The notes under the pieces: model-generated
Seen by the model: the letters and a program-made list of their open reading frames with translations, nothing else
Told to the model about the DNA's origin: nothing
The model's database searches: none
From: a virus
Lineage: Duplodnaviria > Caudoviricetes
Reading direction: 5' to 3' (one strand)
DNA: 64,000 nt
IMG/VR virus record: IMGVR_UViG_3300029288_000079
Coordinates: 117,734 to 181,733 of that record
In this document: piece after piece, positions 2,318 to 48,118 of the stretch
Position numbering within the stretch: the first letter of the stretch is position 1
Layout: the number at the start of each line of letters is the position of its first letter
Made by a program: the position numbers and the translations under genes

Positions 2318-5300
2318 TCAAATTAATTCCATGTCTGTATAAAATATAAACCAACTATCCTTTAAATGCGTATATGTATCCAATATTACATACCAATAAT
2401 AAGGGTTTCCACATTGTTTTAATAATGTTCCTTCCGATCCTTTAGCCAAATTAACTTCAGAAATTCCTATAAAATTAAATACATCATTTTTTAGTCTAAC
2501 CCTATCTCCAGCTATAAACTCATTTTCTATTATAGGTATATCCCAAGATTGTTTTTGTTCAGAATATTGATCCACTATCTCTATATCTTTACTTAACATA
2601 TATACAGAACCCTCCTCACTTATAAATACATTATATATAGGTTCCTCCAGATATTTTTTAGTTAAGCCTGCTGGACAAACTCCTTTAGCATCTCTATTTG
2701 CTTCCTCAGAATTTTTAAAAATTAAATATATATAACCTATTTTACCAATAATTGATTTTACAAAGTTAGGGTCTAAATTACCAATAGATTTAGATAATAT
2801 TTTTACCTTATCCCCAACTTTGGGATCTATATCTGGTATATCCCAAGATAATCTTGGTAAAGCATTATCATGCCTTTCCATACAATGAATAGCTAAATGT
2901 TGGAGTTCTTGTGTAGGTATACCCTCAGTCTTTTTAGATTCTTTTTTGGGTACTATAGTATCAAAGAGGTTATATTGAGAAAGGTCGATATTTTGTTCAT
3001 AATTATCCTCATTAATATCCGATTCAATATAGATATTTCTTATATTATTGTCAATAGCTATCTCACTTGCACTTATATCACATGCTTCCGGAGCTATATG
3101 ATCCGGTGTCTCCATATCAATATCAGGTTCTTCAGCTTCAGATTCTGGTATCAAGTTTAATTGAGTCTCCGGTTCTACAGGATCTACCCGTCTCTGCCTA
3201 CGCTGTCTAGGCTGTAATTGCTCATAATTTCCTATTGGAATTCCATCCCACCCAATTTCTATTCTATAATTAGCATCAAATTTATAAGGGTGCTCAAAAT
3301 CATAATTTAGAGTATAAAGCATTTCACCCCTTTTACTAAATACACTCCCAGGAACATTAAATTTGTTTAGCCAGAAATTAATTCTAGATTTTGTTGTAGG
3401 TGTATTATAATTTCCATTATCTACTATAATTCTATCCCCATAAAATACTACAACATCAGTAGACCAGTATCTTATAGCTATACCATCTCCAAATACCCTA
3501 TGCATTATGGTTTTATGGCCCACTACTCTTTCTGACTTATTCTTAAACCTTCCATTATTAGTTAATATATTTTCAATATCTTGCATCTGCCATGCAGGAG
3601 TATTAGAAATATCCCATGCTAAAGTATTAATATTATCATCAACTTTAACTAAGGTCATAGGCATGTTAGATTCCCAAACTACAGCATAAGCTGTTTTAGG
3701 ATATTTAATTTTATAGACAGGTCTTATATTACTAAAATATTTAGAATCAGCTAGATTTACAGCCCTACTTTCTAAATTATCTTCATTATTATTAAAATCA
3801 TAAATACCAAAATTTTCATAGTTTGGCCCTATATGTAAATAATTATCCCCAAGATGAGTATCATCTTTCCATACTTGCCCTGGTGCAGCTACTTCTAAGA
3901 ACTCTTCTAGTGTATTTACAATATGTCCCTCTTGTAAAAATGGTATATCCCAACTATGCATATATCTTGTTTTATTTGCATTTTCTACTTGAACAAGTTC
4001 CATAGGATATGCTTCATCCATTACATAACATCTATCAGATATAGCTACAGATTTCCAATGTCGATCTTCATTACTTCCAAACCATTGACTAGATCTGATA
4101 GATAAAGCTTTACCAGCTTTAATAGCACTGATCTCACTACTATCTTCTGTAACAATAAAAATATTAGGATTGCTCTTAATATATAAGAATGATCCTAAAG
4201 TCTTACTTCTCCAGACCTGCCCGGCTCTTGCATTTTCTCTAAACTCTTTTTGACTATTTGCAATATCACCTAATTCAGGATCTATAGATATATTCCAAGC
4301 CAATACATCTGTAGCAATTTTACCCTCTGTATCAAAATCATAATCATTAGACTCAATTAATTCTATAATAGCTTCTTTAGATGTTAAATATTCATATTCA
4401 TGTCTCAGCATAGTTAGATAATCGTCACAAAGAGCTTTTTTAAACTCATCCTCAAGATCTTCTATTGACCCATCAATCTCATATTCATTGTCCTCTGTTC
4501 TTTCACTCTCCAATAATCTTAAACTTTCTTTAAATCTCAGTGCAGTTTTATATGTATCACAAGTATTACCATGATCACGCATTATATCTGCAATGCATTC
4601 CGACATACTTTGAGTAAGTTCTCCTGAACAATAACTACCCCTATCAATATCGAATCCTGTTATTTTTAGTCCAATATTTGCAGCATCGTCATATGTACAC
4701 TCCCACCAATCATAATCTACATTTTTATCATAAAGGTTTTCAATAGCTTTTTCCTGTATATCTTCAGGTAATTCATTATATTTATATGTAGTATCTTTAT
4801 CATCGGGATCAAATATAGGAGATATATCCCATGAAAGATTTAAATTATTTCTAAATCTTAAACTACTAGTAGTTTCTTGTGTATATTCCCATATATCATT
4901 TTCTGCTTTAGCTAGTAAACTATCAAAATCAATATTTTTATTAACCTGTTCAGCAGCTCTTTTAGCATATTTTATAGCATAAGCAGCATCAATAGCAGCA
5001 TCAATAGCAGCATCAATAGCAGCATCAATAGCATAAGCAGCAGCATTAGCAACATAATAAGCAGCAGCATTAGCAACATAAGCAGCAGCATCAATAGCAG
5101 CATCATAAGCAGCATCAGCAGCAGCAGTAGCAGCATAACCAGCAGAATAAGCTTTATTTCTATTTTCTTTACTAGGATTCTTAAGACAAGCTTTTGCTGC
5201 CTCTATTGCTGCTCTAGGTCTGCTATCATTAGGATATTTAGATTCAAATATAGGTAGTACAGCTTCTGCACAGTAAATAGCATAAAGTAAATTTACTTTT

Positions 5301-8300
5301 TTAGGATCTACTTCTATAGGTTTAATATCCCAGGAGAGGTTTTCATTTATTAATTTAATATCATTTATATTAACAGCCCACCCTAGACGAGAAGTACCTG
5401 GATGACTTATTGATAAAAGAGAGAAATTATCCCAATCAACACTAACATACCCATCACCTCTTAATTCTGTTATAGTACCTTTACTACCCTTCCGTATAGG
5501 TTCCACATTATTAACATAATAGGCTTCATCATCACGTATGAATTCTATTCTATCCCCTATTTCGAATTCTCCAGGAATTCTAGGTAAGTCCCAGCTTAAA
5601 CTAGATCCATAAGGCATCAAAGGACGCATATCGTTTACTTTATCAAGAGTTCTATGCAAGCCACGTTCAAACCACATATCAGAATCATCTTTATCAAGCT
5701 TTCTAGCTGCAGGATCCTGCTGTTGTTTCTGATCCGTCGGTCCTCTACGAACCACCTCTTCAGGTTGTGGATCTAACACACTATCATATTCATCTGAAGC
5801 TTTAACCTCAAATGGAAATACACCTACAAATCTTATAGGTTTTAAAGTAGTAATATTAGTAAAACTTAATTTTCCACCATCAATAATCACCTTAGCTAAT
5901 TCAGGCTTTGCTAAAAGTTCATTAAAAAATGCTTCAGCATCTTCTTCACTAAATCCAACATACCGATATGCATAATTAATTTTTACAGCTACAACTACTC
6001 CATAAGTATTGTAGAGATTAGCGTATGTCATCCACCCTAAGAAACTCTCAGGATTTGATATATCAGGTTTTGCGGGAGATATATCCCATGACATTTTCTC
6101 TGGATCTTTAAATTTATTCAAAAGATTAATTATCACTCTATCATGATCATCTAAATAATCTTTTTTAGTTATGTAAGATGCCTCCCTATCTGAAAGTGCC
6201 AAATTAGAAATTCTAGCTACATCAGCATTTGATGGACTATCATCTATATCTTGATGAATTAGCGTAGATGGAAAATACTTTATATCATTTTCTCCGGGCA
6301 ACCAATCCTTTGGAGTAGTTATATCTAAGTGATCTTCTTGTCTAAAGAATAAAGCCTGCTGATCAAACTGATCTTTAGACATATCTATATCTGATTTATC
6401 TGTATAAGATTCCGGAGTTGAAACTTTTATAGATGCTTCTCTTATATCTCCATCCTGCAAAGAATCTTCATTCTTTCTACGATCTAACTCTTGTTCAATC
6501 CATTCCCTTAACTTCAGATCAAATACACTAAAACATTGCTCCGCATCCTCTATAATGCTATTCAATGACTTTAGTTCTTTTTCAAGGTTCTCTGTAGGTC
6601 CTTTTAGTAATTTTACAACCCAATTCTCCTCAGGCTTGGGATCTGAAATATCCCATGCCAACTTACTAATCTTTTCCTTTACCTTACCTGAATTTAATGA
6701 TACTTTATACATCTCATCATCCGAGAACTTACAACATATTTCTTTTGCTGACCAACTAAAAGGTTTGAGATCCTTAAGATTAGCTTTACCATTACCCTCG
6801 TATTTTAATGTAACATGGGGTAAGTATCCAAACTTGCGATCAAATTCATCAATTACTGATTCAACGGCTTCTAAACATTTCTGATAAACCTCGGCACCAT
6901 CAATGCAATTAACCAATGCAGCAACTGTGTTATCTCCATTATCAAATGTACCTAAACCTGTAAATTTACATTTTATCTTCTTATATTGTTTCGCTACTGA
7001 TTGGATAGCCTTAACAATCTTTTTCTTTTCATTAGGCGTGAGTTTCTTATCCTTCACGCATATCAATGTCATATGTAAGTCTTGATCAAGATTACTTATA
7101 TGATTGAATCTTTTTCTAACAGACTTAGGAAGATCTAAATAAATGAATATCTCATCCTTGAATTCATTTTTCTTAGATGCTGTGTTATCTATAGAAGGTA
7201 TAAATTCTAAATCCTGAGCAATATAAAAAGACCAAGCAACATTATTACGTACTCCAGTTTTGTATTCTACTGTGTAGTAATGTTGTCCCAAATATTTCTC
7301 ACCTTGATTCTCATAAAAAGTAGAACTGTTAATAGTATCTTCTGATATCCCCACAATTCTACCAGTAAGACCTATACCCATAGTAGCAAATTTGGGTCTT
7401 GCATACACACTTTTTGATAGTATCTTTACTTTGTCCCCAACTTTAAACTCTGGAGTGTATGATATATCCCAAGATAAAGTTTCAAGTATTCCTATATATC
7501 GAATAGGTTTAAGCCATGTTAAATAACATTCAAATGTTTCAATATTTTTAGATAGTCTAGCCTCAGTTCTATTTACTCCTATAGTAGCAGCTACCTCATA
7601 CCAATTACTAAAACCCATGCCCTGTCCTATTAATTTGATGCCCTGAATTACACAATACTGATTATCAAAATCTCTTTTACATAACCATCCTATAAAATCT
7701 TCGGGAGAACTATTATATGTAGGTACCTCAGGATCCATAGATATATTCCAAGATAAATGTGAGCCTATTTTTTCTATGTATCTCTGCCAATAACTCAAGG
7801 GTATATCAAAATGAATTTCATTACCATCTTTATTATAGCCTTCAATAATGACCTTACCCCTCCCCCAGTTAGGTATGTCTTTAGGAAGTTCCCAAACATC
7901 ACAACCTTCATCAACATAATTATATTTAAAATTAATTTCTACAACCTCAAATTCATTTTTATCAAAATCATCAAAGTATTCATTATCAATATCAATTTCA
8001 GACGATGATTGAGGTATAAGACTTACCTTATCCCCAACTTTTAATTCTATATCAGGTATATCCCAAGCCAAAGCTGATCTATAATCTTCCAACATACTAT
8101 GTAGATGTAATGGAAAATCATATTTTTCATCAACGATAGTAGTTCCAAAATCTTGCTCTATATCCACATCAGATTTATTTTCAGGTTTCATCCATACCGC
8201 ATTCTTCAAAATAAGCTTATTATCATTTTTTCTCTCATACTCAATAGGATGATTTGGAGATAATACCAATGCAAATCCTGACCGACTATACCATATCTGA

Positions 8301-9883
8301 CTTGGTTGTGCTTCTTTTATAAATTTCTCTACAGCAGCTTCATTAGCAGCAGTAGACTCAAAAGATAATTTATCATTCACAACTTCTAAAAAATCTTCCC
8401 ATTTATTGTATGGAAATGTATTTGTAGCTCCATGAAAATGAACATATACTCTTCCTGTGTATAATCCTCCACAATCATACTCATATTCATGATCAGGCAA
8501 AATTTCAATAACTTTTCCTACAGATCCCTGAAAATAAGAATCTACATCAATATTATCTAAATAATTTCTATCAGCTATGACTCGAACAATATCCCCTTCT
8601 TTTATGTTAGTAATAATATCCCAAGACTTCTTATTATTATTAGAATCTATGAGTGTAACCCACCTATCATAATCTGGAAGAGGTATGATAAAAGATATCA
8701 TATCACCCTCTACGTCTTTACCTTCTATACGCATGGCTCCTGCATGTCCTTCGGAAGAAAACCATGAACTACTTTTTTTCACAATTGTAACTACAAAATC
8801 ATTTTTGTCAAAGAGATTACTAAACGTAACAGGATCTGAATATGCTGGATCCTTAATAATCTCATGTAAATTTTCAGGTATTATGGAAAAGTGGTCCCCA
8901 ATTTTAGGTACATACAGTTTAATGTTCCATTCTTCAGAAAATCTCAAACTACTAGTAGTTTCTTGTGTATATTCCCATATATCTTCTTGAGCTTTAGCTA
9001 GTAAACTATCAAAATCAATATTCTTATTAGTTCGTTTAGCAGCTTGTCTTGCATATTTTATAGCATTAGCAGCAAAAAAAGCAGCAGCATTATCAGAAAA
9101 AAAAGCAGCAGCATTATCAGCATAATAAGCAGTAGCATAAGCAGCATAATAAGCAGTAGCATTAGCAGCATAAGCAGCAGTAGCAGCATAACCAGCAGCA
9201 GCATTAGCAGCAGAATAAGCAGAATAAACTTTATCTCTATTTTCTTTACTAGGATTCTTAAAACAAGTTTTTGCTGCTTCTATACATTTTCTAACTCTAT
9301 CATCATTAGGATATTGCTCTTCATAAATACTTAATACAGCTTCTGCACAGTATATAGCATAAAGTAAATTTACTTTTTTAGGATCTACTTCTATAGGTTT
9401 AATGTCCCAGGAGAGAGTATTTGAATCTCCTTCAAGATTTATAATATCTGCTTTTATAACAGCCCAATGTTTATTTGCATCACCGAAAGCATCTTCACAT
9501 GTGGGCTGATTATCCCAATCTACAAATACAAAATCCTGGCCCTTCATTAAATCCATAACCACACCCGTAGAACCATATGAGACTTCACAACTATAATCAA
9601 TGGTCCCCCAATAAGAATTTCGATCTTTCTTAATCCATTTAACTCTATCACCTATTTCAAACTGGCCCGGCTTTCTAATCGTAACTATGTCCCATGCACT
9701 TACAGGAGTTCCATATTCCTTAACTTTAAATAATTCCTTATCTTCTCTATCCAAATCTGGAAGAGCTAGATCTGTATTCCAAGGTTCTTGAAAATCTAAG
9801 GAATTATATCCAGGGGCAGGAGACTCCTTTTCAAAAGGATCACCTATACTTTTCAATCTATCTATGATAACATCTTTTGCCAT
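2318..9883 (-). CDS. Giant modular acidic protein (2521 aa), ~19 modules mostly opened by [SA]W[DN][IL]; includes 2 Imm5-like cassettes and a 2H phosphoesterase
   Basis: 16 copies of the motif counted in the translation; SH3/KOW-like and 'GQVW' modules; HxT...HxT domain; directly upstream of portal. Confidence 0.8.
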   Translation of the reverse strand: MAKDVIIDRLKSIGDPFEKESPAPGYNSLDFQEPWNTDLALPDLDREDKELFKVKEYGTPVSAWDIVTIRKPGQFEIGDRVKWIKKDRNSYWGTIDYSCEVSYGSTGVVMDLMKGQDFVFVDWDNQPTCEDAFGDANKHWAVIKADIINLEGDSNTLSWDIKPIEVDPKKVNLLYAIYCAEAVLSIYEEQYPNDDRVRKCIEAAKTCFKNPSKENRDKVYSAYSAANAAAGYAATAAYAANATAYYAAYATAYYADNAAAFFSDNAAAFFAANAIKYARQAAKRTNKNIDFDSLLAKAQEDIWEYTQETTSSLRFSEEWNIKLYVPKIGDHFSIIPENLHEIIKDPAYSDPVTFSNLFDKNDFVVTIVKKSSSWFSSEGHAGAMRIEGKDVEGDMISFIIPLPDYDRWVTLIDSNNNKKSWDIITNIKEGDIVRVIADRNYLDNIDVDSYFQGSVGKVIEILPDHEYEYDCGGLYTGRVYVHFHGATNTFPYNKWEDFLEVVNDKLSFESTAANEAAVEKFIKEAQPSQIWYSRSGFALVLSPNHPIEYERKNDNKLILKNAVWMKPENKSDVDIEQDFGTTIVDEKYDFPLHLHSMLEDYRSALAWDIPDIELKVGDKVSLIPQSSSEIDIDNEYFDDFDKNEFEVVEINFKYNYVDEGCDVWELPKDIPNWGRGKVIIEGYNKDGNEIHFDIPLSYWQRYIEKIGSHLSWNISMDPEVPTYNSSPEDFIGWLCKRDFDNQYCVIQGIKLIGQGMGFSNWYEVAATIGVNRTEARLSKNIETFECYLTWLKPIRYIGILETLSWDISYTPEFKVGDKVKILSKSVYARPKFATMGIGLTGRIVGISEDTINSSTFYENQGEKYLGQHYYTVEYKTGVRNNVAWSFYIAQDLEFIPSIDNTASKKNEFKDEIFIYLDLPKSVRKRFNHISNLDQDLHMTLICVKDKKLTPNEKKKIVKAIQSVAKQYKKIKCKFTGLGTFDNGDNTVAALVNCIDGAEVYQKCLEAVESVIDEFDRKFGYLPHVTLKYEGNGKANLKDLKPFSWSAKEICCKFSDDEMYKVSLNSGKVKEKISKLAWDISDPKPEENWVVKLLKGPTENLEKELKSLNSIIEDAEQCFSVFDLKLREWIEQELDRRKNEDSLQDGDIREASIKVSTPESYTDKSDIDMSKDQFDQQALFFRQEDHLDITTPKDWLPGENDIKYFPSTLIHQDIDDSPSNADVARISNLALSDREASYITKKDYLDDHDRVIINLLNKFKDPEKMSWDISPAKPDISNPESFLGWMTYANLYNTYGVVVAVKINYAYRYVGFSEEDAEAFFNELLAKPELAKVIIDGGKLSFTNITTLKPIRFVGVFPFEVKASDEYDSVLDPQPEEVVRRGPTDQKQQQDPAARKLDKDDSDMWFERGLHRTLDKVNDMRPLMPYGSSLSWDLPRIPGEFEIGDRIEFIRDDEAYYVNNVEPIRKGSKGTITELRGDGYVSVDWDNFSLLSISHPGTSRLGWAVNINDIKLINENLSWDIKPIEVDPKKVNLLYAIYCAEAVLPIFESKYPNDSRPRAAIEAAKACLKNPSKENRNKAYSAGYAATAAADAAYDAAIDAAAYVANAAAYYVANAAAYAIDAAIDAAIDAAIDAAYAIKYAKRAAEQVNKNIDFDSLLAKAENDIWEYTQETTSSLRFRNNLNLSWDISPIFDPDDKDTTYKYNELPEDIQEKAIENLYDKNVDYDWWECTYDDAANIGLKITGFDIDRGSYCSGELTQSMSECIADIMRDHGNTCDTYKTALRFKESLRLLESERTEDNEYEIDGSIEDLEDEFKKALCDDYLTMLRHEYEYLTSKEAIIELIESNDYDFDTEGKIATDVLAWNISIDPELGDIANSQKEFRENARAGQVWRSKTLGSFLYIKSNPNIFIVTEDSSEISAIKAGKALSIRSSQWFGSNEDRHWKSVAISDRCYVMDEAYPMELVQVENANKTRYMHSWDIPFLQEGHIVNTLEEFLEVAAPGQVWKDDTHLGDNYLHIGPNYENFGIYDFNNNEDNLESRAVNLADSKYFSNIRPVYKIKYPKTAYAVVWESNMPMTLVKVDDNINTLAWDISNTPAWQMQDIENILTNNGRFKNKSERVVGHKTIMHRVFGDGIAIRYWSTDVVVFYGDRIIVDNGNYNTPTTKSRINFWLNKFNVPGSVFSKRGEMLYTLNYDFEHPYKFDANYRIEIGWDGIPIGNYEQLQPRQRRQRRVDPVEPETQLNLIPESEAEEPDIDMETPDHIAPEACDISASEIAIDNNIRNIYIESDINEDNYEQNIDLSQYNLFDTIVPKKESKKTEGIPTQELQHLAIHCMERHDNALPRLSWDIPDIDPKVGDKVKILSKSIGNLDPNFVKSIIGKIGYIYLIFKNSEEANRDAKGVCPAGLTKKYLEEPIYNVFISEEGSVYMLSKDIEIVDQYSEQKQSWDIPIIENEFIAGDRVRLKNDVFNFIGISEVNLAKGSEGTLLKQCGNPYYWYVILDTYTHLKDSWFIFYTDMELI
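4853..5338 (-). repeat. Cassette copy B (LSWDIKPIEVD...TTSSLRF; Imm5-like helical domain with Ala-rich core)
   Basis: Near-identical DNA to 8939-9415, 12589-13056 and 44906-45352. Confidence 0.95.
6660..7185 (-). other. 2H phosphoesterase domain (LigT/Acb1-like) within the 2521-aa ORF
   Basis: Two HxT motifs, DLHMTL and YLPHVTL, about 85 aa apart; boundaries approximate. Confidence 0.75.
8939..9415 (-). repeat. Cassette copy A
   Basis: Near-identical to the other three copies; most diverged core. Confidence 0.95.
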
Positions 9884-9885
9884 AG

Positions 9886-12800
9886 TTATTCTTCAAATTT
9901 TAAACCACCCGATACTTCTGCTTTAGGAGTTTTACCATTATTACCATACCCATAGTCAATACCAAATTCTAAACCCTTACTTGGTCTATATCTTTGCTCA
10001 GGATATACTGAAGGATGTCTGCATTCTGCACATAGACCTGAAGGATTACCCATCGTATTTCTACCACATTCTCGACATTCATGACTTAATGGAAGATTCA
10101 TCTCTCTAGCTGAATGAAGCCCCCCTAATCTTTCCATTATACTATCTTCAAAAAAGTTTAGTGAACTTTCTGCTGATAAATACTGTAGCATCTTATTTAT
10201 TTTTTCTATTCTCTCAATATTACCCTCGGACTTAGCTTGTGCTAATTCATCTAAATATTCATCCATAAGATGTTGCTTGTGACGCTCCAAAGATTGAGGA
10301 GACATTTGTTGATTATCAAATTTCAAATCATCATACTTTTTACGAGGATCATTATCGGCCAATCCAAGATCAGGAGTATCTAAAGTTTCCTCCCCCATAT
10401 TAGGAGACCCTGCAGGAGCCAATTCATTTAAATCTGACTCATCAAATCCAAGGTCATCAATCTCATCTTTAGGATACTTTGTCTGGGATTTCAAAGCCTC
10501 TGGTAGAACAATGCTAACTACATTCTTGATCATACCAATAGCCGTCTCATCCAATGTAAGACCTTTCAAAATTCTTACTATTGCTGCATTAAAAGCCTCT
10601 GGAGACTTTAATAAAAGATCAGAGTTTTGCTTTACATGTTCTACTATTGTAATTATAGATTTCACATAGTTTATGATTGGAAGATCCATTGGAATTTTAG
10701 AAACCTGTTCCATTTCTTCAGCCAATTTTTGAACTTCTTCAGGTTTAAGATTAAATTCCTCTTGACGTTTTGTTATACCACTAGCTATCAGCATATTTTT
10801 AGGGGCATCTTTAAGATATGGATAATCATTCAATTGCCGATCCACATATCTTAAAACCTTATCTTTATAAACAGAACCATACACATCCCCCGAAAATTTA
10901 AGATCGGTAGAGCTATAAAGCTGTCTTGTAGAATACTTGTCACTAAAATCTTTACAAGAAGATATAAAATATTTTCCGGGAGCTGTACTCAATTGATAAA
11001 CCACAACTATCTGACTATCTACTAATTTTTCCGTTATAATAGTCATAGTGCCCAATGATTTCTTAAACTTAGTAAGCTTATTCAGATCTGTTACAGTAGC
11101 CACCGAATTAGGATCCTGTTTATCAGAACATTTAACTCCTTTACGCAAATCTAACTTATAAGGTAATAGATCTATAGCATACCATGTTTTTGGATAGTTT
11201 TGCTTAGTAGTATTACTCCAAATGTCACTACCTGTATCTGGAGTAATATCCATCGCCGGATGAAAAGGAACTCCACCAAGTCTTAATGCAGCATAGTCAT
11301 AATAAGGCCTGCGATCCTTATCATTATTTTCTTTCATGCAATCTTCAAATGTAGGCACCCAAACCTCATCAACCCCTCCATGCTCAATAGCCCTTTTAAT
11401 TATCTCAAGCATAACCATTTCAGGCCAGTCTCTAAAATAATTACGAAAAGCTACTATAGCTTTCAATGCATATATATCTTGGCTCATCTCTGAATTAAAG
11501 CTGACATTATTACCGTTCAATTTAACATAACCACTCTTTGATAACTTATTAAAGGTATCTATAGTGAATCCTGAAGATCCATCTAAAACATCTTGTATAG
11601 GCACTGATTTATTCATATCTCCTTTAAGGATATCATAAAGTTTTGATATAGCTAATGTCTCAGGAGCTTTTAACTCAAATGGAATATTTTTACCTTTTAC
11701 CATATGTTTAAAATAGTTATCACCTCTACCTGCAGCTTGCTGTAAAGCATCGCTTTGATTCTCCACATCTAACCATACATTACGTTTTTGAGTGGACCCC
11801 TCAACCCCACTATTATCAACTATATAAGTAGGCCTTACTCTAGCCGAAGCAAAAGCGTTCATCCAGTGTGTATTATGTGGCATCCCCTCAGTAAAATTTC
11901 TATTTTTTAAGGTATGGGGAGATGTTAAGTCTATCATATCTACAATACTCTTAACTTCCTGAGGCAATCCATTAGGATTGGGTTCCAAAATAATACCAAA
12001 TGTATTGGGATATTTTGAGCCAGCTTCACCTCCCGGAGGATTTCTCCTGCCTAAAGTAATGTCATCTATACGACTCCCATGAGGAAATTGACTTATATCT
12101 CTTAATTGTTGCTGAAGTAGTACAGAATCACCTGCTTTACTATCATACTGTGAATTTAATAATATTGCATATATCTGAGATATCTGCTGTGCATCTAATT
12201 GATCATTGGGAAATTGTATTATAATGTTTCTTAAATTATATGCATCTGCAGGTAAAGCATCTAGTAATGCCTGCTTGGACATTGTCCCCCTACCCGAATG
12301 CTGTTGAAACACTTCTTGAAGTTTCTGTTCTTGCTGAGTTTGTTGCTCGATCTCCATCTGTTCTTTTGAAGGTTTGTTTTCCTTTGGCCCAGATATCATA
12401 CCTATAATCTTGCCCATTGATTGAGCTAGCCCCATTGTAGCTAACTCACCACTCTTATTCATTTGTATGATGATACCTTTTGCCTCAGGAAGAGTAAGCC
12501 ATTCAGCTTTCTGACCTGACTGAAGTAAATTCTCTAGATCTTGTTTAATAATTGATTTATCATCAGGTATTGCAGGCATCTCTTCAGAAAATCTCAAACT
12601 ACTAGTAGTTTCTTGTGTATATTCCCATATATCATTTTCTGCTTTAATTTTTAAACTATCAAAATCAATATTCTTATTAACCTGTTCAGCAGCTCTTTTA
12701 GCATATTTTATAGCATAAGCAGCAGCATCAGCATAAGCAGCATCAGTAGCATCAATAGCAGCATTAGCAGCATAATAAGCAGCAGCATTAGCAACATAAG

Positions 12801-14532: not shown

Positions 14533-14547
14533 ATTAACCTCTGTAAA

Positions 14548-15987: not shown

Positions 15988-15988
15988 C

Positions 15989-18622: not shown

Positions 18623-18635
18623 AGATTCTCCAATC

Positions 18636-18671: not shown

Positions 18672-18796
18672 CTTGGAAGGGTAAAAATAAATATAATTTC
18701 AACATTTACTGAAAGGAGATGTAAAGGGATGTATGCTAAAAATTGTATTCTATTTTTAGTATATTGTCTGGTAAACAATCAATAAGATATAGAATA

Positions 18797-33934: not shown

Positions 33935-33935
33935 A

Positions 33936-34190: not shown

Positions 34191-34194
34191 AATA

Positions 34195-35007: not shown

Positions 35008-35039
35008 GATTTTGCTCCTCACGCTTATCCATTATGTTA

Positions 35040-35135
35040 TTAAATTAATTCTATATCAGACTCCAACAAAAATATACTATCTAAGTCACCAACATTGAAT
35101 TTACTAAATGTAATATCCCAAGCTAATGATGTCAT
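35040..35135 (-). CDS. 31-aa mini-ORF MTSLAWDITFSKFNVGDLDSIFLLESDIELI (collapsed WDI/SH3-like module)
   Basis: Hand-translated; ATGA overlap with the upstream stop; keeps only the ends of a module. Confidence 0.6.
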   Translation of the reverse strand: MTSLAWDITFSKFNVGDLDSIFLLESDIELI

Positions 35136-39900: not shown

Positions 39901-40290
39901 TTTCATTACAACTAACCGATCTGTGAAAGTACTATAATTAGCTTCTTTTTCCATATGGAATGAATCTGCTGTACGAGATTCTTTATATCCTTCTAAAGCT
40001 TTAACTTCCTGTGAAACTTTCAGAAGGCCATCACATTCCGGACATTTAAACTTAGCCTGTGTATTCTTCAGAGCAGCCAGACGTTGTTGGTTCTTAAGCT
40101 CCGGATGATCAGCTAAAAATGTCTTAGCACAGCCATCACAGGCATATTTAATAACAACAAGACTTGAATCACTTGCTGTTTTTTGAATTGGTTTATCTCC
40201 CTTTTGAGAGCATTTTAACAACTCATCTGTATTCATCCATTTGGGTGCAGACTGATGACTGTTATTTTCTTGCGGAACTATTCTAGACAT
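36994..40290 (-). CDS. Large putative virion/head protein (Zn ribbon, low-complexity linkers, C-terminal coiled coil)
   Basis: 1098 aa; CDGC/CPEC; KTAS/RTAD/KSAE/VSWD junction-like motifs; AAGGAG SD. Confidence 0.65.
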   Translation of the reverse strand: MSRIVPQENNSHQSAPKWMNTDELLKCSQKGDKPIQKTASDSSLVVIKYACDGCAKTFLADHPELKNQQRLAALKNTQAKFKCPECDGLLKVSQEVKALEGYKESRTADSFHMEKEANYSTFTDRLVVMKALDALSKFASKVGMYRADVRYQRSEHTKQAGQQNDMLNSIDCQIDWQYGRNQHARVYASVQIDPAGKILMPRVFKTSSNQEYPFDKETVANLMTDVDFKKQFERQMRKTDIPTFRKPDPTNFHMASEKVADEGGEGVEGKGEGYIEEMYGDIGKPAETPNTIADAEGKPIKIGDTVIQKEFKPGSKSYVWSNLEKYVVKEVVSPQHIVVFDKLSEKDLALNPTEVKVIKSAEDKIKSKHNPSGESDVWTNEDNKKIAEDEALNDAVNSQAPSGPNAMPKSDDDYNLNFPEPSTQSNTELLANIRSLYGDTSNTTGLTMPEANNLSESQVAMLQNIIDQHNSSVGGVSQSVNDLVQQANDILYSSKVSWDNPSSISNQPATAYAPQKPTGVVQQQLTPQQTVYNPQDSKQYTVKQQTPQATTIVDTQTNQEAVVPAGQEQYLKPVVHTTSELEDTALREHIYANNDKENSKSLEKIELKKARIKTMSPRWNEIRKSFRNTLQAGGWKGSITNGIDHFSSLAIVASITDVNGNVITDPQSIRYTLLKGHEDITVQFDDGTEKKACNLGGTIMMVDQEPIVIRASKGYNNEYNGDPSRMPREVRALQEMGFKPDKGDKDETGHSDHGVPLGETKKIDIGLTEFPAGKTRGTGKGYNIPFRKMDENQVKERENFPDRDMLPYGKQPARDIEYKGPKTNSPLDEVESSLREAVGFDVKINRPDQEGTTTKPSVVRHSPSEVTVTAPSAPASAAKPTLTKPVEPKLDMKKAPNIEEYKEPEVIPEAGGKASEAITKLRQVIQKKQEVEAALKAALKPVEETMANIRKPYESEIAKQADQMRSYIDMVYDQLTQSEDHVQAYENKIWAAVSREKATSPTASLTQVLAEADKLDKTLSEQIRKLKAIIENKDMQMVVERFLYEFPISGTQQKKIQSADEGSDGASISSLLKQFEQWIREMIPINTAVIEQLLSTEL

Positions 40291-40343
40291 TTTATGTCTC
40301 CTTTAATAGAAATTAGTTATTTATTTTTCTTTATTATATATTT

Positions 40344-42197
40344 TTATACCCACGCCTTAGAATCTTCTATATTATCAAAGTCAATGCTAAAATCCTGTGA
40401 ATCCCTAGACTCCATATCTCCATAATCAATGCCTTGTTCATATAAATCTCTCACCTGTCTTTTACAGACACCCCTCATAATAACATCTCCAAGCACAGTC
40501 TCACTATAAGGTATATAGAATTTCCTCACCGGAGCATAATCCTTTTCATTAATATACGCACCATCATCCTTAGGATCCTCAATATCATTTTCTGTATTAT
40601 TTATATCCCAAGCCTTAGTCTGATTAGATGCAATGTCTATATTCCGTGAGTCTACAATATAAAATCCTTTATCTTCATACCCATCCCATACCACTGCAAC
40701 CAGATATTCTCCCTCTTCATTAAAATATTCAGGTCCTGGATCTACAACAGTTCCTAATGTTCCTATGGGTAAAGTACCAAAACCCCAAGTTCTACTACTC
40801 GAAGCACAATCATTTATTACAACTCTAGCACCTACAATGAAAAAATCCCTATTCTTTTCTATTGAAATATTCCAGGCTTGATGTTCATTATTTTGTATTT
40901 CCACAGGTGAGAGGTTTTTAGAATTAATCCATACTTCACTTGGTATATTTTTATTAGTATTCTCTAATTTTAAAGGAAAATTATCTGGATATACATACAT
41001 ATATTTACATATTATATAAGAAGCATTAGATGCATTAATTAATATGTAACATTTACCATTAGTTCCTTCATAATATTTTAAATTATAATCCAAAACCTTA
41101 CAATCCTTACCCGTGTATAAATCTTTCGTATTAAACTCACCAAAAATAGATTTACTCCAATGTTGTCCCGGACGAATAACCTCCCCCAACTCTTCAATTG
41201 TATTCACAACAAGACCTACTTCAGGTTCAGGTAATTCAATATCCCATCCAAATTTCTCAGCATCAGTCTGCTCATCATCTACTTTACGAATAGATTCTAC
41301 ATCTGTTGTCCATCCTAAATATTCTTTGTTACCCCAATACCAACTACATTTAGGTAAATGAAACCACTCCACTTCAACCATATCCCCATTTTCAGAAACA
41401 GACTCGACAGTACCTCTAGAACCTACATCTATCTCACCTGCATCAAGATTATCCTCTATTAAAGATTCTACAAGATCTCCAACTTTAAAATCCGGTTCAG
41501 GTAAATCCCAGGACTGCTTTATATTATCAAATGTTTTATCAGTCTTAACTAACCTCATAGGAAAGGAATCTTTAATTACTATACAATCAGACCATGCTTG
41601 ATTTACCTTTTCATCTATTGTAAATGTCCAAGCACAATTTGGAAACGTCCACGCAGCCAGATGATAATCTGACTTTACTCCTGACCCCTCAGCATCAAAA
41701 TTAGGACATATATTAAGATATATACACCCAATCCCACCACCACTCCACACCTGCCCCACTTGAGCATTACTAATGAGTTCACTAATATCCTCCACTACCG
41801 TACCTACAGTAACTTCTAATGGTATATCCCAAGAATGTTTGTCTTCTATGCTTAATTTATCATATTCTATAGAGTCCATATCCCAGTCAACATTATCATT
41901 GTTCAAATATTCTCTTACAGCAACCACTAAATTACCAGTTTCATATTTATTCCATTTAAAATTACCAGCATCCTCACAAAATTCCAACCCCGATTCATCA
42001 AAGTATTTAACAGCCTCATCAAATGTTCTACACCATATAGCCCATACACTACCCCCACTCTTACTCAAAGAAGGACTACAAGGTAGAATTAATACAGGAA
42101 CACCATATAATAATCCACCCCTTACATGATAAACTTTAGGTTCTATAAAGGGTATATCCCAAGATTGAGTTTCAGTATGTTCGGCTATCTCATTCAT
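40344..42197 (-). CDS. Six-module WDI-motif protein
   Basis: QSWDI, HSWDI, QSWDL, FGWDI, QAWNI, KAWDI. Confidence 0.75.
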   Translation of the reverse strand: MNEIAEHTETQSWDIPFIEPKVYHVRGGLLYGVPVLILPCSPSLSKSGGSVWAIWCRTFDEAVKYFDESGLEFCEDAGNFKWNKYETGNLVVAVREYLNNDNVDWDMDSIEYDKLSIEDKHSWDIPLEVTVGTVVEDISELISNAQVGQVWSGGGIGCIYLNICPNFDAEGSGVKSDYHLAAWTFPNCAWTFTIDEKVNQAWSDCIVIKDSFPMRLVKTDKTFDNIKQSWDLPEPDFKVGDLVESLIEDNLDAGEIDVGSRGTVESVSENGDMVEVEWFHLPKCSWYWGNKEYLGWTTDVESIRKVDDEQTDAEKFGWDIELPEPEVGLVVNTIEELGEVIRPGQHWSKSIFGEFNTKDLYTGKDCKVLDYNLKYYEGTNGKCYILINASNASYIICKYMYVYPDNFPLKLENTNKNIPSEVWINSKNLSPVEIQNNEHQAWNISIEKNRDFFIVGARVVINDCASSSRTWGFGTLPIGTLGTVVDPGPEYFNEEGEYLVAVVWDGYEDKGFYIVDSRNIDIASNQTKAWDINNTENDIEDPKDDGAYINEKDYAPVRKFYIPYSETVLGDVIMRGVCKRQVRDLYEQGIDYGDMESRDSQDFSIDFDNIEDSKAWV

Positions 42198-42202
42198 AAT
42201 AA

Positions 42203-45200
42203 TTAGAAGCTTATCGGAACTTCTTTCTCGCCAAGCTCACCGTTTGGATTCACTTGTGTATTAGGCTTCTGTGGAGGATTACCAAGTCCCGCACCTGGAG
42301 CCGGAGCTGCCTGGGCTTGCGGAGGAGCACCAATAGCTTCATTCAAAGCCTGCTCTTCAGGACTATCTACAAACTTAATATTAACTTCTGCAGGTTTACC
42401 ATTTGTCTTTGGAATTACAGTTGTTTGTATTTGTTGCCCCGTATCTTTATTAGAATCATACAATACATTAGCATCTGCGGGCTTTTGATTCTGTGTTGGT
42501 TGTTCATTTTGCAAGTTCTGATTCGGAGGCAATGGAGCTCCGGCACCTGTAGGTTGGTCTTTCTTACTCTCATCATTTTCCCAACCCATCGGAGGAACTG
42601 AGTCAGAAATATCAGCTGCCATACGAGACTTAGGAAGATATTGTTTAACAAAGCTACCCTTGGTCCAGATATCGGATTCACCTGATTGATTATGCTCAGA
42701 TTTTATAAAGTACTTAGCATCTAGTCCTAAGCCTTTTCCGTTACCATAATCAACATGAATATCATTCATATCACCTGCATGAAGACTTGTTACCATTCCT
42801 GTTTTACCTAAAAATTCTCTGACATTATTATTCAAAAGATCATTAGGAGTACTTGCAGCCTCTTCAATAGTATCAGGATTCAATGTTACTTTATCCCCTA
42901 TTTTGAATTTGCTGAATCTATCACCATAATTCTCCTGAATCATATCTCTATCGCTGTGAGCATTAGGATCTACATCAAAAGCTTTATGTTTATTCACTTG
43001 TATAGCCCTTTCTTGTGCATTAGCTTCTTCTTTTGTATCATGCTTATATGTTTTACCATGACATTTAACATCATATTTACCATCCTCTTTAACTACTTTA
43101 GCTTCTGCCATCAAAGCAGCTACTACTTCTTGATTACGTTCCATATGTGCCTCACTTCTTTTATTATTAAATTGCATTTTTAAATATTCTATCAAATACT
43201 TTGCATATGACTTTAAAACATCTTGACCCTTAAATTTGAATACACCACCATCAGGACAATCATTATAAAGTCTTTCTAACTCTTTCAAATCTTCTCTTGT
43301 AACACTTATTGTATTATCTTTCTCTTCGATATCCCAAGATAGCGTTGTGTTTTCATCAAATATTTTTAGATCAGAATCCATATTATCACCACGTCTTACC
43401 CATGTCATCCCATAATCAAGACCATTTTTAACTCTAAAATCTACTTCCTTTCTTAAAGCATCCACATAATGATCATAGGCCACATTATCTACCAATCTTA
43501 TTTTGTTATTCTTATCACGATAAACAACATAATATTTATCATTCTGAATACTACCTTTCTTTAAACTAGACTCAAGCAATAAATCATTATTATCTTCAAT
43601 AAAATCATCATCGTCATTTGAGTCTGACAAACAAATACCGCATACTGGATTTCCATTATAATACCCATGTGGCTTACTATAATATCTTTTTCCACACTTA
43701 GAACACACAAATGATATTCCCTCAGAAGCACATGGCAGTCTTGAATAATCATTAGGTATAATTTCCTCATTTTTATGTTTGTCCTTCATCATACGGTGGT
43801 AATCATAAAAATGAATATCCTTATCCCAACTAAGCGTAGTATTATTTTCCTCTGGCTGATTATCAACCATCTCTTGGATTTTTTGCTTAGCTGCAAGATC
43901 TCCGGACAATACACCTTTCATTAATGAATTAAATTGCTCTGCCGGAAGCTTAACTATCTGCTCGAATATCATAGCTCTCTTACGAGGGTCTGCAATATTC
44001 ATTGCCTGTAATAGCTTATCCCAATAATCTTGCCCAAATCTAATATCCCAACGTTCATTCTTTAAATCTTCTGTCTCCTTAAATACATGAGGAGTAATAT
44101 CTTCATCAGGCAATCCAAGCGAAGCCACGAGTTCCATAGCACCTTTAACCATCTCGGCCAGCAAGACTACAAAGTTTGTAGCTGTAGCATGGATGCAAGG
44201 CTTCTTTTCTTCGCCCTCTTCACCATCCATAGAGAACGATGTAGATCCACCTATCTGTGGTGTCTCTGCTGGATCTCCTTTAACCCAATATCTATACTGA
44301 GTCAAAGGAATATATTGTTTATACAATTGTGTCAACTGAGGAGATATCTGATTCAATTCTTGTTGAGCAAAGAAAAACATATTCTTCGCCTTTTGTGCAG
44401 CTCCTTGAGATAGACTATTTATAATTCTACGCTTGTCTACTTCCCTCTTAATATCTTCTTCATCAAACTGCCTAATCTGAAATCCACCCAGATCCTGTGA
44501 AGGAATCTGTGGAGGCTCAGTCTTATTCTCTATTTGGAATTGATCTGGATCTATATCTTCTCGTTTACCTAACTTAATATCCCAATCAACCTCCCCATGT
44601 TGAATACCCATCTGCTCTTCAACTATCTTTATAGCTAACTGCTCCAACTGTTGAGCTCGAGGTTGTTCTATTGCCTGGATCTGCTTTCTTAAATTCTTAA
44701 CATTATGATATGCTTCGTCGGCACTGGTACCTGATGTATTTCTAACTTGTTCTACATTCTTATTAAATGTATTTGAAGCATTCTGTTCTACATATCCTTC
44801 AGGTAAGGAAGCATTACCATGATGCAAAGATTGACCTGTGTTGATCTTCTCCTCAATTTCAGGATGCATTCTCTCTTCTCGTTCAGGGTTGTATTGAACT
44901 GCTGCAAATCTCAAACTACTAGTAGTTTCTTGTGTATATTCCCATATATCATTTTCTGCTTTAGCTAGTAAACTATCAAAATCTATATTCTTATTAACCT
45001 GTTCAGCAGCTCTTTTAGCATATTTTATAGCACTAGCAGCAGCATCATTAGCAGCATAACCAGCATAACCAGCATCATAAGCAGTAGCATAATAAGCAGC
45101 ACGAGCAGCATCAGCAGCAGCAGCAGCAGCAGTAGCAGCAGTAGCAGCATAACCAGCAGAATAAGCTTTATCTCTATTTTCTTTACTAGGATTCTTAAGA

Positions 45201-45661
45201 CAAGTTTTTGCTGCCTCTATTGCTGCCCTAGGTCTGCTATCATTAGGATATTTAGATTCAAATATAGGTAGTACAGCTTCCACACAGTATATAGCATAAA
45301 GTAAATTTACTTTTTTAGGATCTACTTCTATAGGTTTAATGTCCCAGGAGAGGTTTTCACCATCATCTAAATTACTAATTTCCTCAATCTCCTTATCAGA
45401 TAATTCTATATAAGAATCTTTATCTTCTAACCCTACTATAGGATCTTTGGTAATCATTGTACCCCAAAAGTTAACATATACATACCGTTCAAGGGTAATA
45501 GGTACACTCCAATTTTCATCATCGGATCTAAACTCATAATAATATAAGTTTTTATCACGATCACGAACTCTATCTTCTATAATTTTAACATCCCTACCCC
45601 TAAATTTAAAATTACTATCAAATTTAAGCTCAGGTATATCCCATGATAATGCGATTTTCAT
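42203..45661 (-). CDS. Modular WDI-motif protein with N-terminal LPD28-like domain and cassette copy D
   Basis: YYYEFRSDD...P.TLE..V.VNF.GT.IT..PI; embedded cassette; further LSWD junctions. Confidence 0.7.
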   Translation of the reverse strand: MKIALSWDIPELKFDSNFKFRGRDVKIIEDRVRDRDKNLYYYEFRSDDENWSVPITLERYVYVNFWGTMITKDPIVGLEDKDSYIELSDKEIEEISNLDDGENLSWDIKPIEVDPKKVNLLYAIYCVEAVLPIFESKYPNDSRPRAAIEAAKTCLKNPSKENRDKAYSAGYAATAATAAAAAADAARAAYYATAYDAGYAGYAANDAAASAIKYAKRAAEQVNKNIDFDSLLAKAENDIWEYTQETTSSLRFAAVQYNPEREERMHPEIEEKINTGQSLHHGNASLPEGYVEQNASNTFNKNVEQVRNTSGTSADEAYHNVKNLRKQIQAIEQPRAQQLEQLAIKIVEEQMGIQHGEVDWDIKLGKREDIDPDQFQIENKTEPPQIPSQDLGGFQIRQFDEEDIKREVDKRRIINSLSQGAAQKAKNMFFFAQQELNQISPQLTQLYKQYIPLTQYRYWVKGDPAETPQIGGSTSFSMDGEEGEEKKPCIHATATNFVVLLAEMVKGAMELVASLGLPDEDITPHVFKETEDLKNERWDIRFGQDYWDKLLQAMNIADPRKRAMIFEQIVKLPAEQFNSLMKGVLSGDLAAKQKIQEMVDNQPEENNTTLSWDKDIHFYDYHRMMKDKHKNEEIIPNDYSRLPCASEGISFVCSKCGKRYYSKPHGYYNGNPVCGICLSDSNDDDDFIEDNNDLLLESSLKKGSIQNDKYYVVYRDKNNKIRLVDNVAYDHYVDALRKEVDFRVKNGLDYGMTWVRRGDNMDSDLKIFDENTTLSWDIEEKDNTISVTREDLKELERLYNDCPDGGVFKFKGQDVLKSYAKYLIEYLKMQFNNKRSEAHMERNQEVVAALMAEAKVVKEDGKYDVKCHGKTYKHDTKEEANAQERAIQVNKHKAFDVDPNAHSDRDMIQENYGDRFSKFKIGDKVTLNPDTIEEAASTPNDLLNNNVREFLGKTGMVTSLHAGDMNDIHVDYGNGKGLGLDAKYFIKSEHNQSGESDIWTKGSFVKQYLPKSRMAADISDSVPPMGWENDESKKDQPTGAGAPLPPNQNLQNEQPTQNQKPADANVLYDSNKDTGQQIQTTVIPKTNGKPAEVNIKFVDSPEEQALNEAIGAPPQAQAAPAPGAGLGNPPQKPNTQVNPNGELGEKEVPISF
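44906..45352 (-). repeat. Cassette copy D
   Basis: Near-identical DNA to copies A-C, 32 kb away. Confidence 0.95.
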
Positions 45662-48118
45662 TTATACTTTCCCTATAGCTTTAGGTCCTGGTAAATACTC
45701 GGGAGCTCTTTGTGGACCTCTGAAAGGACTTCTATTAGGTTCTACCGGAGTTATTTTCTCTGGTGTTTCTACATCAGGATCCACTTTCGTAGGAACCTCA
45801 ACATCAGGTTCAGCCTCTGTACCAAAGTTTAAAGCTTCAACCTTCTTCAGTTTCTTATAATAATCTCTATCCTCAGCTAAGTGATCAATAGCTATTTGCC
45901 TTGCAACTTTGTCATCAGTAGTATGTTCTTTCTCTATGATAACACCCTCATTGATCATAGCTTCAGTTATACCCTCAATAGAAGTCTCTGTTGAAACCAT
46001 ATCGGCTATGCTTTGAGTTGTGGCCATAATATTTATATCACTCTTCTGATCTACACTATGATATTTACAGCCACACTTCGGACACATATCATTAAGATCA
46101 TCTTTCCATTCAATTAGCTTCTTACATCCTGGACAAGGATGTGTATTGATTATATCAGCTGCTAATTGTTCCACAGGAGCTTTTGTTCTTTGTACAAACT
46201 CAGCCTCTGTCATACATTCACCATCTATGAAATACTTTACAGAACCATCCGGAGACACTACTGCTGGACCTTTATCATTATGGAATTTGCCATGTTTAAA
46301 ATACTGCTGGCTTCCATCGTAACCTACAAATGCAGGACCTTCACTATTATGATATTCACCCTTATTATCATAATAATGCTGATTACCCTTAAAATCCACG
46401 CGGCTCCTATGAAAAGGAAGATCAACACCCTCATCAGCTGCAAGAACGGCTATGATATCATCATTATCAGCATAACTAACTTCCTTGTAACCCGCTACTC
46501 GAGCTTCTACACCAGTGTCGGGACGTAAAAATGTATCACCTACCTGAAGTCTTTTCTTCCAAGATAATGTAACTTTCTGACCATCTTCATTGATAAAACT
46601 ATATGCATCTTCGTCATCCTCAAGAAGATCTTCTACATCAGGAATGACAACACTTTTTGGTAATTTATCTTTTATACCCCTCTCACTTATAGGTATATTA
46701 TCATCAAGTGCTTCCTCATCCCTCTTTACAGATTCAGGCCATTCTTTGGTTTTGAACCTGCTTATATCTAGTTCATGAGGAAGTACTGGTTTTGGATAGC
46801 TACCTTTATCTCTGTGTTTAATAATTCTATTATCAATCCTACCTTCACCACTCATATAATCTGTAGCAACTTTCTCAAGAGTGATCATTATATTCTGTTT
46901 CCCACCTCGAGTATAGTTTTGAACACTAGACATAGGAGCTAAACCACCCATACCCCCAGAATTAGGTGCTGGCACCTGTGGGACCTCTGGGACAGGAGCC
47001 TGTGCCTTTGGTCCCCCTTCGGGTTCTTTAGCTTCCTCTTTTGGTGCTTCTTCTTTTGGAGCTTCTGCAGGTTTCTCATTCCCGCCCCCAACATTATTCT
47101 TGTAAAAATCTAATCCCTTTGCAGGATCCGTAAATTCAATTGTGACCTTGGCTGTACCACCCGCACCTGTCTCATCCATTGTAATATTTTTTGATTTAAT
47201 ACCCTGAGCAATAGGAATATCTTTTGGATCAGGAATTTTATCAGCTGCAGTTTTATTTAATGATGCTATTGTTATGCGATTATTTTCTGGAAGGTCAACT
47301 AAAATAACTTGTCCTGATAAAGAAGAAGCTTTGCATGCATCATCGTTATAAAAATGTATTATAGGATCATTCTCAATACTAGACAATATTTCTTTAATCT
47401 CTACAGGATCGGTAATATGATCTTCACTTCCTTCCATTGTAATATATTTTATGGTCCAAGGATCTGCATACTTATGTCTATAACCTCTATTTTCTTTTGT
47501 CCTTAAGTCAGCATCCTTACTTAAACTTGCAACTGAATATTTACTTGCAACTGTAACCCTACCTCCACCAGTAACATCAAATGTCTGTCCACTTATTGCA
47601 CCCGCCATTGTGGAACTACCATCATCAAACTCAACGATAGTATCTTTAAAATCTCCACTCTCAAGCATACTAGTTATATCAAATGGATCGGTAACAGTTG
47701 GAGCATCAGTAGCACTATCTACATGCAATCTAACAATGACTTTACCCACACCTAGACCTGCGTCATCTAGCTCAGCAGTCTTTATTAATACTTCGTTGGC
47801 CACCTTCAAAGCAATATCATCGTCACTATCCTGATAAGATACTAACCATTTCTCTTGCTGATGCGTCTCTGGGTTTTCAAACTCTTTAACTGCCCAAACC
47901 CCACCAATCTTCTGCATTGTTGAAGCCTCTCGATAAAGTCCCCTCCCCAAGGACTCAAATCGATTAGAGGCTATAGCTGAATCTAATTTAATATGTTGTT
48001 CATCCTCTTGTAATTCCGATACTTTTACTTTGGGTTTTTTTATATCCCTGCGGATATTTGCTAGAATCTTTTGCATTGAATCCGACATAGCATAGATACT
48101 ACGACTCGGTATAGGCAT
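45662..48118 (-). CDS. Modular protein with H-x3-GPA repeats, Zn ribbon and DUF5661-like domain
   Basis: YHNSEGPA/FHNDKGPA; EGVIIEKEHTTD..VARQIAIDHL.ED.DYYKKL. Confidence 0.7.
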   Translation of the reverse strand: MPIPSRSIYAMSDSMQKILANIRRDIKKPKVKVSELQEDEQHIKLDSAIASNRFESLGRGLYREASTMQKIGGVWAVKEFENPETHQQEKWLVSYQDSDDDIALKVANEVLIKTAELDDAGLGVGKVIVRLHVDSATDAPTVTDPFDITSMLESGDFKDTIVEFDDGSSTMAGAISGQTFDVTGGGRVTVASKYSVASLSKDADLRTKENRGYRHKYADPWTIKYITMEGSEDHITDPVEIKEILSSIENDPIIHFYNDDACKASSLSGQVILVDLPENNRITIASLNKTAADKIPDPKDIPIAQGIKSKNITMDETGAGGTAKVTIEFTDPAKGLDFYKNNVGGGNEKPAEAPKEEAPKEEAKEPEGGPKAQAPVPEVPQVPAPNSGGMGGLAPMSSVQNYTRGGKQNIMITLEKVATDYMSGEGRIDNRIIKHRDKGSYPKPVLPHELDISRFKTKEWPESVKRDEEALDDNIPISERGIKDKLPKSVVIPDVEDLLEDDEDAYSFINEDGQKVTLSWKKRLQVGDTFLRPDTGVEARVAGYKEVSYADNDDIIAVLAADEGVDLPFHRSRVDFKGNQHYYDNKGEYHNSEGPAFVGYDGSQQYFKHGKFHNDKGPAVVSPDGSVKYFIDGECMTEAEFVQRTKAPVEQLAADIINTHPCPGCKKLIEWKDDLNDMCPKCGCKYHSVDQKSDINIMATTQSIADMVSTETSIEGITEAMINEGVIIEKEHTTDDKVARQIAIDHLAEDRDYYKKLKKVEALNFGTEAEPDVEVPTKVDPDVETPEKITPVEPNRSPFRGPQRAPEYLPGPKAIGKV

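Follow-up and report, generated by a model that had tools for sequence, protein, structure and literature searches.

A tryptophan-containing peptide at the module junctions of phage polyvalent proteins marks the points of module exchange

Introduction

The last 64 kb of the 181,733-bp genome of an uncultured phage (record IMGVR_UViG_3300029288_000079, positions 117,734 to 181,733; CheckV completeness 100%), henceforth referred to as the window, raise the question of why one short peptide, [SAG]W[DN][IL] and usually LSWDI, should recur at the start of one domain after another in a set of large proteins encoded near the portal and terminase genes, and whether a common partner reads it. The window has 33.5% G+C and nearly all of its genes lie on the minus strand; the portal protein shares ~30% identity with that of Bacillus phage G, and there is no close cultured relative. 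The initial annotation of the window, made from the DNA sequence alone, described the peptide as a linker element that opens unrelated modules, and proposed that it is a cleavage site or a capsid-docking tag of effectors that are packaged and injected. Proteins of this general kind have been described as polyvalent proteins, which are giant, multi-domain proteins that combine unrelated conflict domains, are encoded beside head-morphogenesis genes and are predicted to travel with the DNA (PMC5512222). Here, we consider where the peptide lies, what is conserved in it, what happens to the modules at this point and what might read it. Coordinates are those of the window unless the genome or another contig is named.

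Results

Within the window, 36 copies of [SAG]W[DN][IL] are present in open reading frames (ORFs) on the minus strand, which agrees well with the approximately 35 counted in the initial annotation. Sixteen of these belong to P0001, a giant polyvalent protein of 2521 aa encoded directly upstream of the portal gene (2318-9883), and the others are distributed over P0008 (1548 aa, 9886-14532; one copy), an 877-aa polyvalent protein (15989-18622; four copies), a 259-aa protein (21136-21915; one copy), P0003 (420 aa, 35731-36993; five copies), P0002 (617 aa, 40344-42197; six copies) and a polyvalent protein of 1152 aa (42203-45661; three copies). P0003 had previously been credited with four copies; four of the five are indeed at junctions, and the additional one (VSWDL) lies within a module. 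A further copy is found in a 52-codon remnant ORF on the same strand (35043-35198), which starts M-T-S-L-A-W-D-I; it is a truncated version of a stand-alone SH3-like gene (97 aa), which a related phage retains intact (P0018, L001:4287-4580). Over the whole genome the motif occurs 47 times compared to 3.2 times expected from composition, and in the proteins that bear it, for which 0.85 copies are expected, the maximum reached in 1000 shuffles was 5. All but one of the genomic copies (46) fall within the 9,431 aa of 11 proteins, compared to a single copy in the 47,791 aa of the remaining ORFs, and the non-coding frames of the window contain two chance matches only. Four of the bearing proteins are encoded outside the window, three of them just upstream of it; the fourth (genome 11674-12159) has a copy that seems to be due to chance. 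The expectation set out in the initial annotation, that the motif would also be enriched at the N-termini of capsid or scaffold proteins and in other virion genes, was therefore not borne out, since the motif is confined to these 11 polyproteins.

The consensus of the motif extends to K-L-S-W-D-I-[PS], and in 33 of 45 copies one of the next three residues is a proline. Most copies are internal; in 5 of the 11 proteins, and in several stand-alone modules, a copy lies 4-12 residues from the initiating methionine, consistent with the previous observation that the motif is sometimes found in the first residues of an ORF. Degenerate copies also occur, the clearer ones being EEWNI, EEWDI, LSWDV, LSWDK and KAWDN. 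Other junctions had been reported to carry the variants LSFE, QAFD, KAFD and SLRF; these exist, but the [SAG]F[DE]x class is not clearly enriched (0.74 versus 0.42 per 1000 aa). The codons of the motif are varied: its serine is encoded by AGY in 11 copies and by TCN in 25, and five different codons are used for the leucine at position -1. At orthologous junctions in a related phage, the copies display synonymous differences as well as S/A and D/N swaps amid flanks that have diverged. On the basis of this codon variety and of the orthologue differences, we conclude that selection acts on the motif peptide, as the initial annotation had argued, and a signal at the level of DNA or RNA was rejected because the codons vary.

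With respect to the modules, the motif is located in the linker, 2-10 residues before each of them, and matches to Pfam and PHROG domains begin 2-8 aa after it. The folds preceded by the motif comprise a predicted SH3-like barrel, a helical Imm5-like domain, LPD28, QVW-type and PEDFIGW-type modules and many singletons, and clustering of the modules gave at least five families in addition to singletons, which substantiates the early description of the motif as opening unrelated modules. In an alignment of 24 SH3-like modules together with ten upstream residues (mean column identity 22%), the motif Trp and one Gly were the sole invariant columns. When 1.84 billion representative proteins were searched with a profile, 198 relatives of the SH3-like module were found; among 75 well-covered domain instances the Trp motif is present in 25 and missing from 50, and the latter include stand-alone proteins that open at the first strand and tandem arrays with plain Pro/Glu linkers. 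The structure of the SH3-like module predicted by AlphaFold2 (AF2) from a 91-row alignment is a confidently modelled barrel with a predicted local distance difference test (pLDDT) score of 87.7, with 94-96 in the core, and mean scores of 57 for residues 1-10 and 74 for residues 11-20; in this model the motif (residues 11-14) lies in coil and the first secondary structure begins at residue 24. Similarly, in a weak model of the four-module protein P0003, the four coil stretches with pLDDT<50 coincide with the four motif sites. The top Foldseek matches to the SH3-like model were the nitrile hydratase beta C-terminal domain, PetP, NdhS/PsaE, CAP-Gly, chromo and SH3 domains, the best of them with an E of only 0.028, and in Pfam the module has a weak NHase_beta_C match. 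Overall, the motif is a linker element that stands outside the modules, a position that is also predicted by the models.

The Imm5-like cassette, which occurs in five different genes with pairwise DNA identities of 81-99.6%, reveals what happens at this linker. Copies in the window (all on the minus strand) are found in P0001 (4853-5345 and 8917-9412), P0008 (12581-13060) and the 1152-aa protein (44906-45359). All pairwise DNA alignments of the cassettes, including those of the copy at 4853-5345, start 0 to -10 nt from the first base of the motif Ser codon, with unrelated sequence upstream, and the copies in P0008 and the 1152-aa protein have the same left boundary as the others. The copy at 8917-9412 is 99.6% identical to genome 110798-111293, which lies outside the window; the homology of this pair extends over 496 nt and ends ~15 nt beyond the start of the next, degenerate, motif, and by codon the two copies are identical from the Ser codon of SWDI through the TGG of the next motif. 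In their second halves, the Imm5-like cassettes consist of a variable Ala/Tyr/Asn-rich low-complexity tract, the length of which is not the same in all copies.

Exchange was also evident between phages. P0005, the ortholog of P0003 in a related phage (73% identity), contains two added modules (198 aa) between two motif copies. The giants encoded upstream of the portal gene in two phages with 81% identical portals, P0001 (2521 aa, 16 motifs) and P0012 (2858 aa, 17 motifs), are mosaics, and the ends of the blocks with at least 60% identity between them lie within 12 residues of a motif in 9 of 15 and 10 of 15 cases compared to 2.3 expected (P<1e-4). Fusion and fission of genes were detected as well: a module that is fused here is a separate gene in a relative and retains the motif near its N-terminus. 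At the DNA level, an 8-nt core, TGGGAYAT, is common to nearly all copies. Taken together, these comparisons of sequences indicate that the motif is the point at which modules are copied, inserted and replaced.

The motif-bearing proteins are polyvalent proteins in the sense of Iyer et al. 2017 (PMC5512222), and the view of the initial annotation that they are multi-domain proteins of this type is supported by their Pfam matches, namely Imm5_like (four in the window and a fifth outside it), LPD28, 2_5_RNA_ligase2, Methyltransf_25 and pentapeptide repeats. In the 1152-aa protein, which also contains one of the Imm5-like cassettes, the LPD28 match (PF18843; E=4.2e-12, 46 bits versus a cut-off of 27) spans residues 30-90 and follows the N-terminal motif copy. 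P0001 comprises two Imm5-like cassettes, a 2H phosphoesterase, at least seven SH3-like modules and others, and P0008 contains pentapeptide repeats, a C-terminal zinc ribbon and the Imm5-like cassette that is opened by its only motif (13042-13053). SH3-like and QVW-type modules are combined with a C-terminal S-adenosylmethionine methyltransferase in the 877-aa protein, a QVW-type module is opened by the motif at residue 46 of the 259-aa protein, and P0003 and P0002 consist of four and six modules, respectively, each opened by a motif. The polyprotein genes form tight runs, which lie between a peptidase gene and the portal gene and upstream of the terminase gene, in an order that is conserved in relatives; this is in keeping with the original statement that they flank portal and terminase. 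The neighbouring giant in a relative has 2H/Acb1-like and Fic matches, which are in line with a counter-defence cargo. A Fic match is found in the orthologous 2858-aa giant (L011:16033-21431) and is lacking from the giant of the present genome, that is, a different cargo occupies the same slot.

In other phage lineages, the motif takes different forms. SWEV is present in ~7-10 copies in one 1670-aa protein, SWKQ in ~10 copies in one 1180-aa protein encoded just upstream of a terminase homologue, and SWEE in other proteins, and these forms are often preceded by S-S-L-K-L. Each of the dialects SWDI, SWEV/SWEE and SWKQ recurs many times within a single protein. L-[SA]-W is constant across lineages, and the two residues that follow it are fixed in each lineage. 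The motif thus changes as a block from one phage lineage to another, and this shift of dozens of sites together fits co-evolution with a reader; all copies in a genome are probably read by one common partner. Searches by tblastn with P0003, P0014 and P0019 against 50,697 phage records yielded nothing or a short unrelated stretch, and no cultured relative with the motif was found; in Rctr197k, which is related in its portal, the giant gene upstream of the portal gene is devoid of the W motif. Two non-modular, motif-free proteins are encoded on the minus strand among the polyprotein genes of the window, one of 1098 aa with no family match (36994-40290) and one of 818 aa with a DUF5661 match (45662-48118). 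Both are conserved and are found alongside the polyprotein genes in each lineage examined, the former being syntenic in the lineages with other dialects and the latter in the SWKQ lineage.

Discussion

Our tentative preference is to regard the motif as a dedicated cleavage signal whose reader is a putative endoprotease. Such an enzyme would cut the polyproteins into ~50 small modules, either within the capsid or once they have been delivered into the host, and any domain flanked by the code could join the module set. We propose that exchanges end exactly at the motif because of the short stretch of DNA identity that the code imposes (TGGGAYAT) combined with selection for in-frame products. Proteolytic release of the domains of polyvalent proteins was proposed by Iyer et al. 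(PMC5512222); for the present proteins, cleavage or capsid docking, as well as packaging and injection, are hypotheses.

Several results weigh against cleavage by such an endoprotease. No recognisable prohead protease is encoded in the genome, since Peptidase_S77, S78, CLP_protease and S49 all lack a match at E<=1, although a divergent protease may be present, and no Pfam match to trypsin-like (Trypsin_2), caspase-like (C14) or M16 peptidases was found in the genome either; the motif-bearing proteins themselves contain neither an HExxH sequence nor a Pfam peptidase match. The only peptidase found was P0007 (14548-15987, minus strand), a motif-free protein of 479 aa with a C-terminal M42/M20-type metallopeptidase domain, which is encoded within the polyprotein operon and is 62% conserved in a relative. 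M42/M20-type peptidases are exopeptidases. The family of the P0007 peptidase domain comprises 1241 unannotated clusters at E<=0.001 with ~50% identity, one member of which has a Peptidase_M42 match, and its members occur in diverse contexts in many phage-like contigs; because these contexts include non-head ones, P0007 was downgraded and is a weak candidate for the reader. In addition, and unlike known prohead-protease motifs, the motif does not occur in the other proteins, among them the portal protein and the capsid-protein fragment that were identified; this argues against a general head-maturation protease and for a dedicated reader. Finally, single-module proteins retain an N-terminal motif and one protein of a relative ends 7 residues past a copy, and copies at such positions are not required by pure release of modules.

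Other searches for a reader gave little. Scans of the genome for HExxH and HxxEH yielded only a deformylase-like protein and small ORFs; a 192-aa ORF at 60813-61391 has the Q-H-E-N-D-H metal site typical of peptide deformylase. The gp2 peptidase of phage G has no homology to P0007. Sequence and profile searches of the PDB with P0007 and the 1098-aa and 818-aa proteins gave nothing informative, and the same is true of PHROG, Pfam and NCBIfam scans of head-region and conserved proteins of no known family and of ESM Atlas searches with two uncharacterised head-region proteins. Self-cleavage at the Asp or Asn of the motif was set aside, since Glu or Lys occupies this position in other lineages.

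Alternatively, although we consider this unlikely, the motif may be a docking tag that remains uncleaved, each copy binding a common receptor (the scaffold or capsid interior, the portal, a chaperone, or the neighbouring 1098-aa or 818-aa protein) such that polyproteins and single modules would be recruited multivalently into the prohead, in the manner of the T4 capsid-targeting sequence except that the tag is repeated. A tag of this kind would account for the retention of the motif at the N-terminus of single-module proteins and of first modules, and once near a C-terminus; the dialects, which imply a co-evolving reader, the protease searches, which found none, and the location of the genes in the head module are equally in its favour. 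However, no receptor was identified, and one tag per protein would be enough for targeting, yet up to 16-17 are present. To our knowledge, internal repeated targeting tags have no precedent, which also counts against docking.

It is likewise improbable, in our judgement, that the motif has no reader and is an insulating linker between folds, such that recombination between copies re-creates the peptide and only in-frame joints survive. The breakpoints exactly at the motif, the 8-nt core in nearly all copies and the lower-confidence coil predicted for the motif in the models would all be expected of such a joint. Nevertheless, both Ser codon boxes and five Leu codons are used, so that DNA identity is not what is kept; the invariant Trp and the five-residue consensus far exceed the needs of a passive linker, simple Pro/Glu linkers suffice in related tandem SH3-like arrays, and switches of dialect throughout a lineage are hard to explain without a reader. 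As for the idea that the motif belongs to the folded modules as their N-terminal strand or cap, which the initial annotation had itself raised as an objection, this is largely refuted and very improbable: the motif does always precede a module and the pLDDT of 74 at residues 11-20 of the model is intermediate, but it is modelled as coil, stands before at least five unrelated families (SH3-like, all-alpha Imm5-like, LPD28, QVW-type and PEDFIGW-type) and singletons, is missing from 50 of 75 homologous SH3-like domains, of which the stand-alone ones begin at the first strand, and lies ahead of the start of the Pfam profiles.

Returning to the cleavage signal, a broader reading, which we put forward with somewhat less confidence, is that lineage-specific junction codes (L-S-W-D-I, SWEV, SWKQ), each with a dedicated reader, may form a general plug-in system, in which any domain flanked by the code would either be processed or be loaded into the virion as cargo, with the code doubling as an in-frame recombination joint for trading effector modules. 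The class of proteins is already known, and the junction code is absent from the literature that was searched. The initial annotation did not recognise the system as one that had been described; this does not hold for the proteins, which belong to the class of Iyer et al. 2017 (PMC5512222), and does hold for the junction motif and the exchange at it, neither of which appears in that paper, where no conserved junction peptide is mentioned and the word 'linker' occurs 0 times. A literature search found no published description of the junction code, and the Iyer/Aravind work is silent on junction motifs. Like the polyvalent proteins of Iyer et al. 2017, the present proteins carry several unrelated conflict or effector domains per chain, include an LPD and lie in a head-gene neighbourhood. 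Unlike those proteins, they contain no zincin metallopeptidase (MPTase) or hub peptidase domain, a separate M42/M20-like gene being located between two of them, and a single 5-residue code is found at nearly every junction and is also the site of cassette exchange.

Short motifs that are read by a protease are known from giant phages, where cleavage of head and ejection proteins by the prohead protease takes place at motifs of three residues (PMC10052503); in phiKZ, 201phi2-1 and SPN3US these proteins are cut by gp175 or gp245 at S/A/G-X-E or A-X-E (PMC10052503, PMC5694885). [SAG]-W-[DN] resembles [SAG]-X-E in that a small residue lies two positions before the acidic residue in both. The present proteins share with these substrates, and with the internal proteins of T4 (capsid-targeting sequence, gp21), a short conserved motif at N-terminal and internal positions, packaging being a prediction in the present case. 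Whereas motifs of the T4 and phiKZ type also mark the capsid, portal and protease proteins, and a T4-type protease is encoded alongside, the motif described here is found only in the polyproteins, its Trp is invariant and no such protease was detected.

Two further comparisons are relevant. VENN in CdiA and PxxxxDPxGL in Rhs are conserved peptides before a variable toxin cassette that act as recombination joints, and in Rhs the peptide is also a cleavage site. As in these proteins, a short peptide before a swappable cassette serves here as a recombination joint; whereas CdiA and Rhs have one joint per protein, a C-terminal toxin and an immunity gene, up to 16-17 joints per protein are present here, and in a virus. 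In the polyproteins of RNA viruses, one protease reads a repeated short site, with 3C or 3CL-type sites at the domain borders, and the present proteins similarly have many functional units per chain separated by a repeated short site. Unlike RNA virus polyproteins, they belong to a DNA phage for which no protease was found, their accessory modules are shuffled freely, and their units can be found as separate genes too.

It is believed that polyvalent proteins enter a cell ahead of all other phage weapons, and the junction code offers a handle on how dozens of unrelated domains per chain are deployed and evolve fast. It allows the exact borders of ~50 uncharacterised modules, candidates for counter-defence domains, to be predicted, it predicts that there is a reader to look for, either a protease or a receptor, and it shows down to the nucleotide that modules are moved as cassettes at the code, both from gene to gene and from phage to phage. 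If the reader were found, the code could be used to load chosen proteins into phage capsids, or to release them, in laboratory work on phages and bacteria.

Other features of the genome

The portal gene (311-2299) and the gene of the large terminase (30764-33934), both on the minus strand and motif-free, provide the context of the polyprotein genes. The terminase is split by an intein (Intein_splicing E=8e-23) that includes a LAGLIDADG endonuclease, an arrangement that is also present in a relative (L001). Outside the window, a match to the major head protein (L006:2004-3664, genome 100004-101664) spans only the C-terminal half of the family profile, and an ORF for a LAGLIDADG_2 endonuclease precedes that of the major head protein; it is probable, given this half-profile match and the preceding ORF, that an intron or homing element interrupts the capsid gene. 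A 498-aa protein encoded just downstream of the portal region (L006:16880-18376, genome 114880-116376) has a Hint or mini-intein-like segment at residues 202-344 with weak Pfam matches.

Two pairs of exact 127-nt repeats are located near the contig ends (genome 1-127 and 181482-181608; genome 180129-180255 and 181607-181733, corresponding to window 62396-62522 and 63749-64000). These may represent terminal redundancy or an assembly artefact, the latter being possible because 127 nt equals a common assembler k-mer. The protein encoded at 51995-53224 has an FGE-sulfatase-type domain and also matches a phage 'kinase' PHROG. The product of 55162-56163 has a C-terminal sorting domain for type IX secretion, which suggests a Bacteroidota host for the phage.

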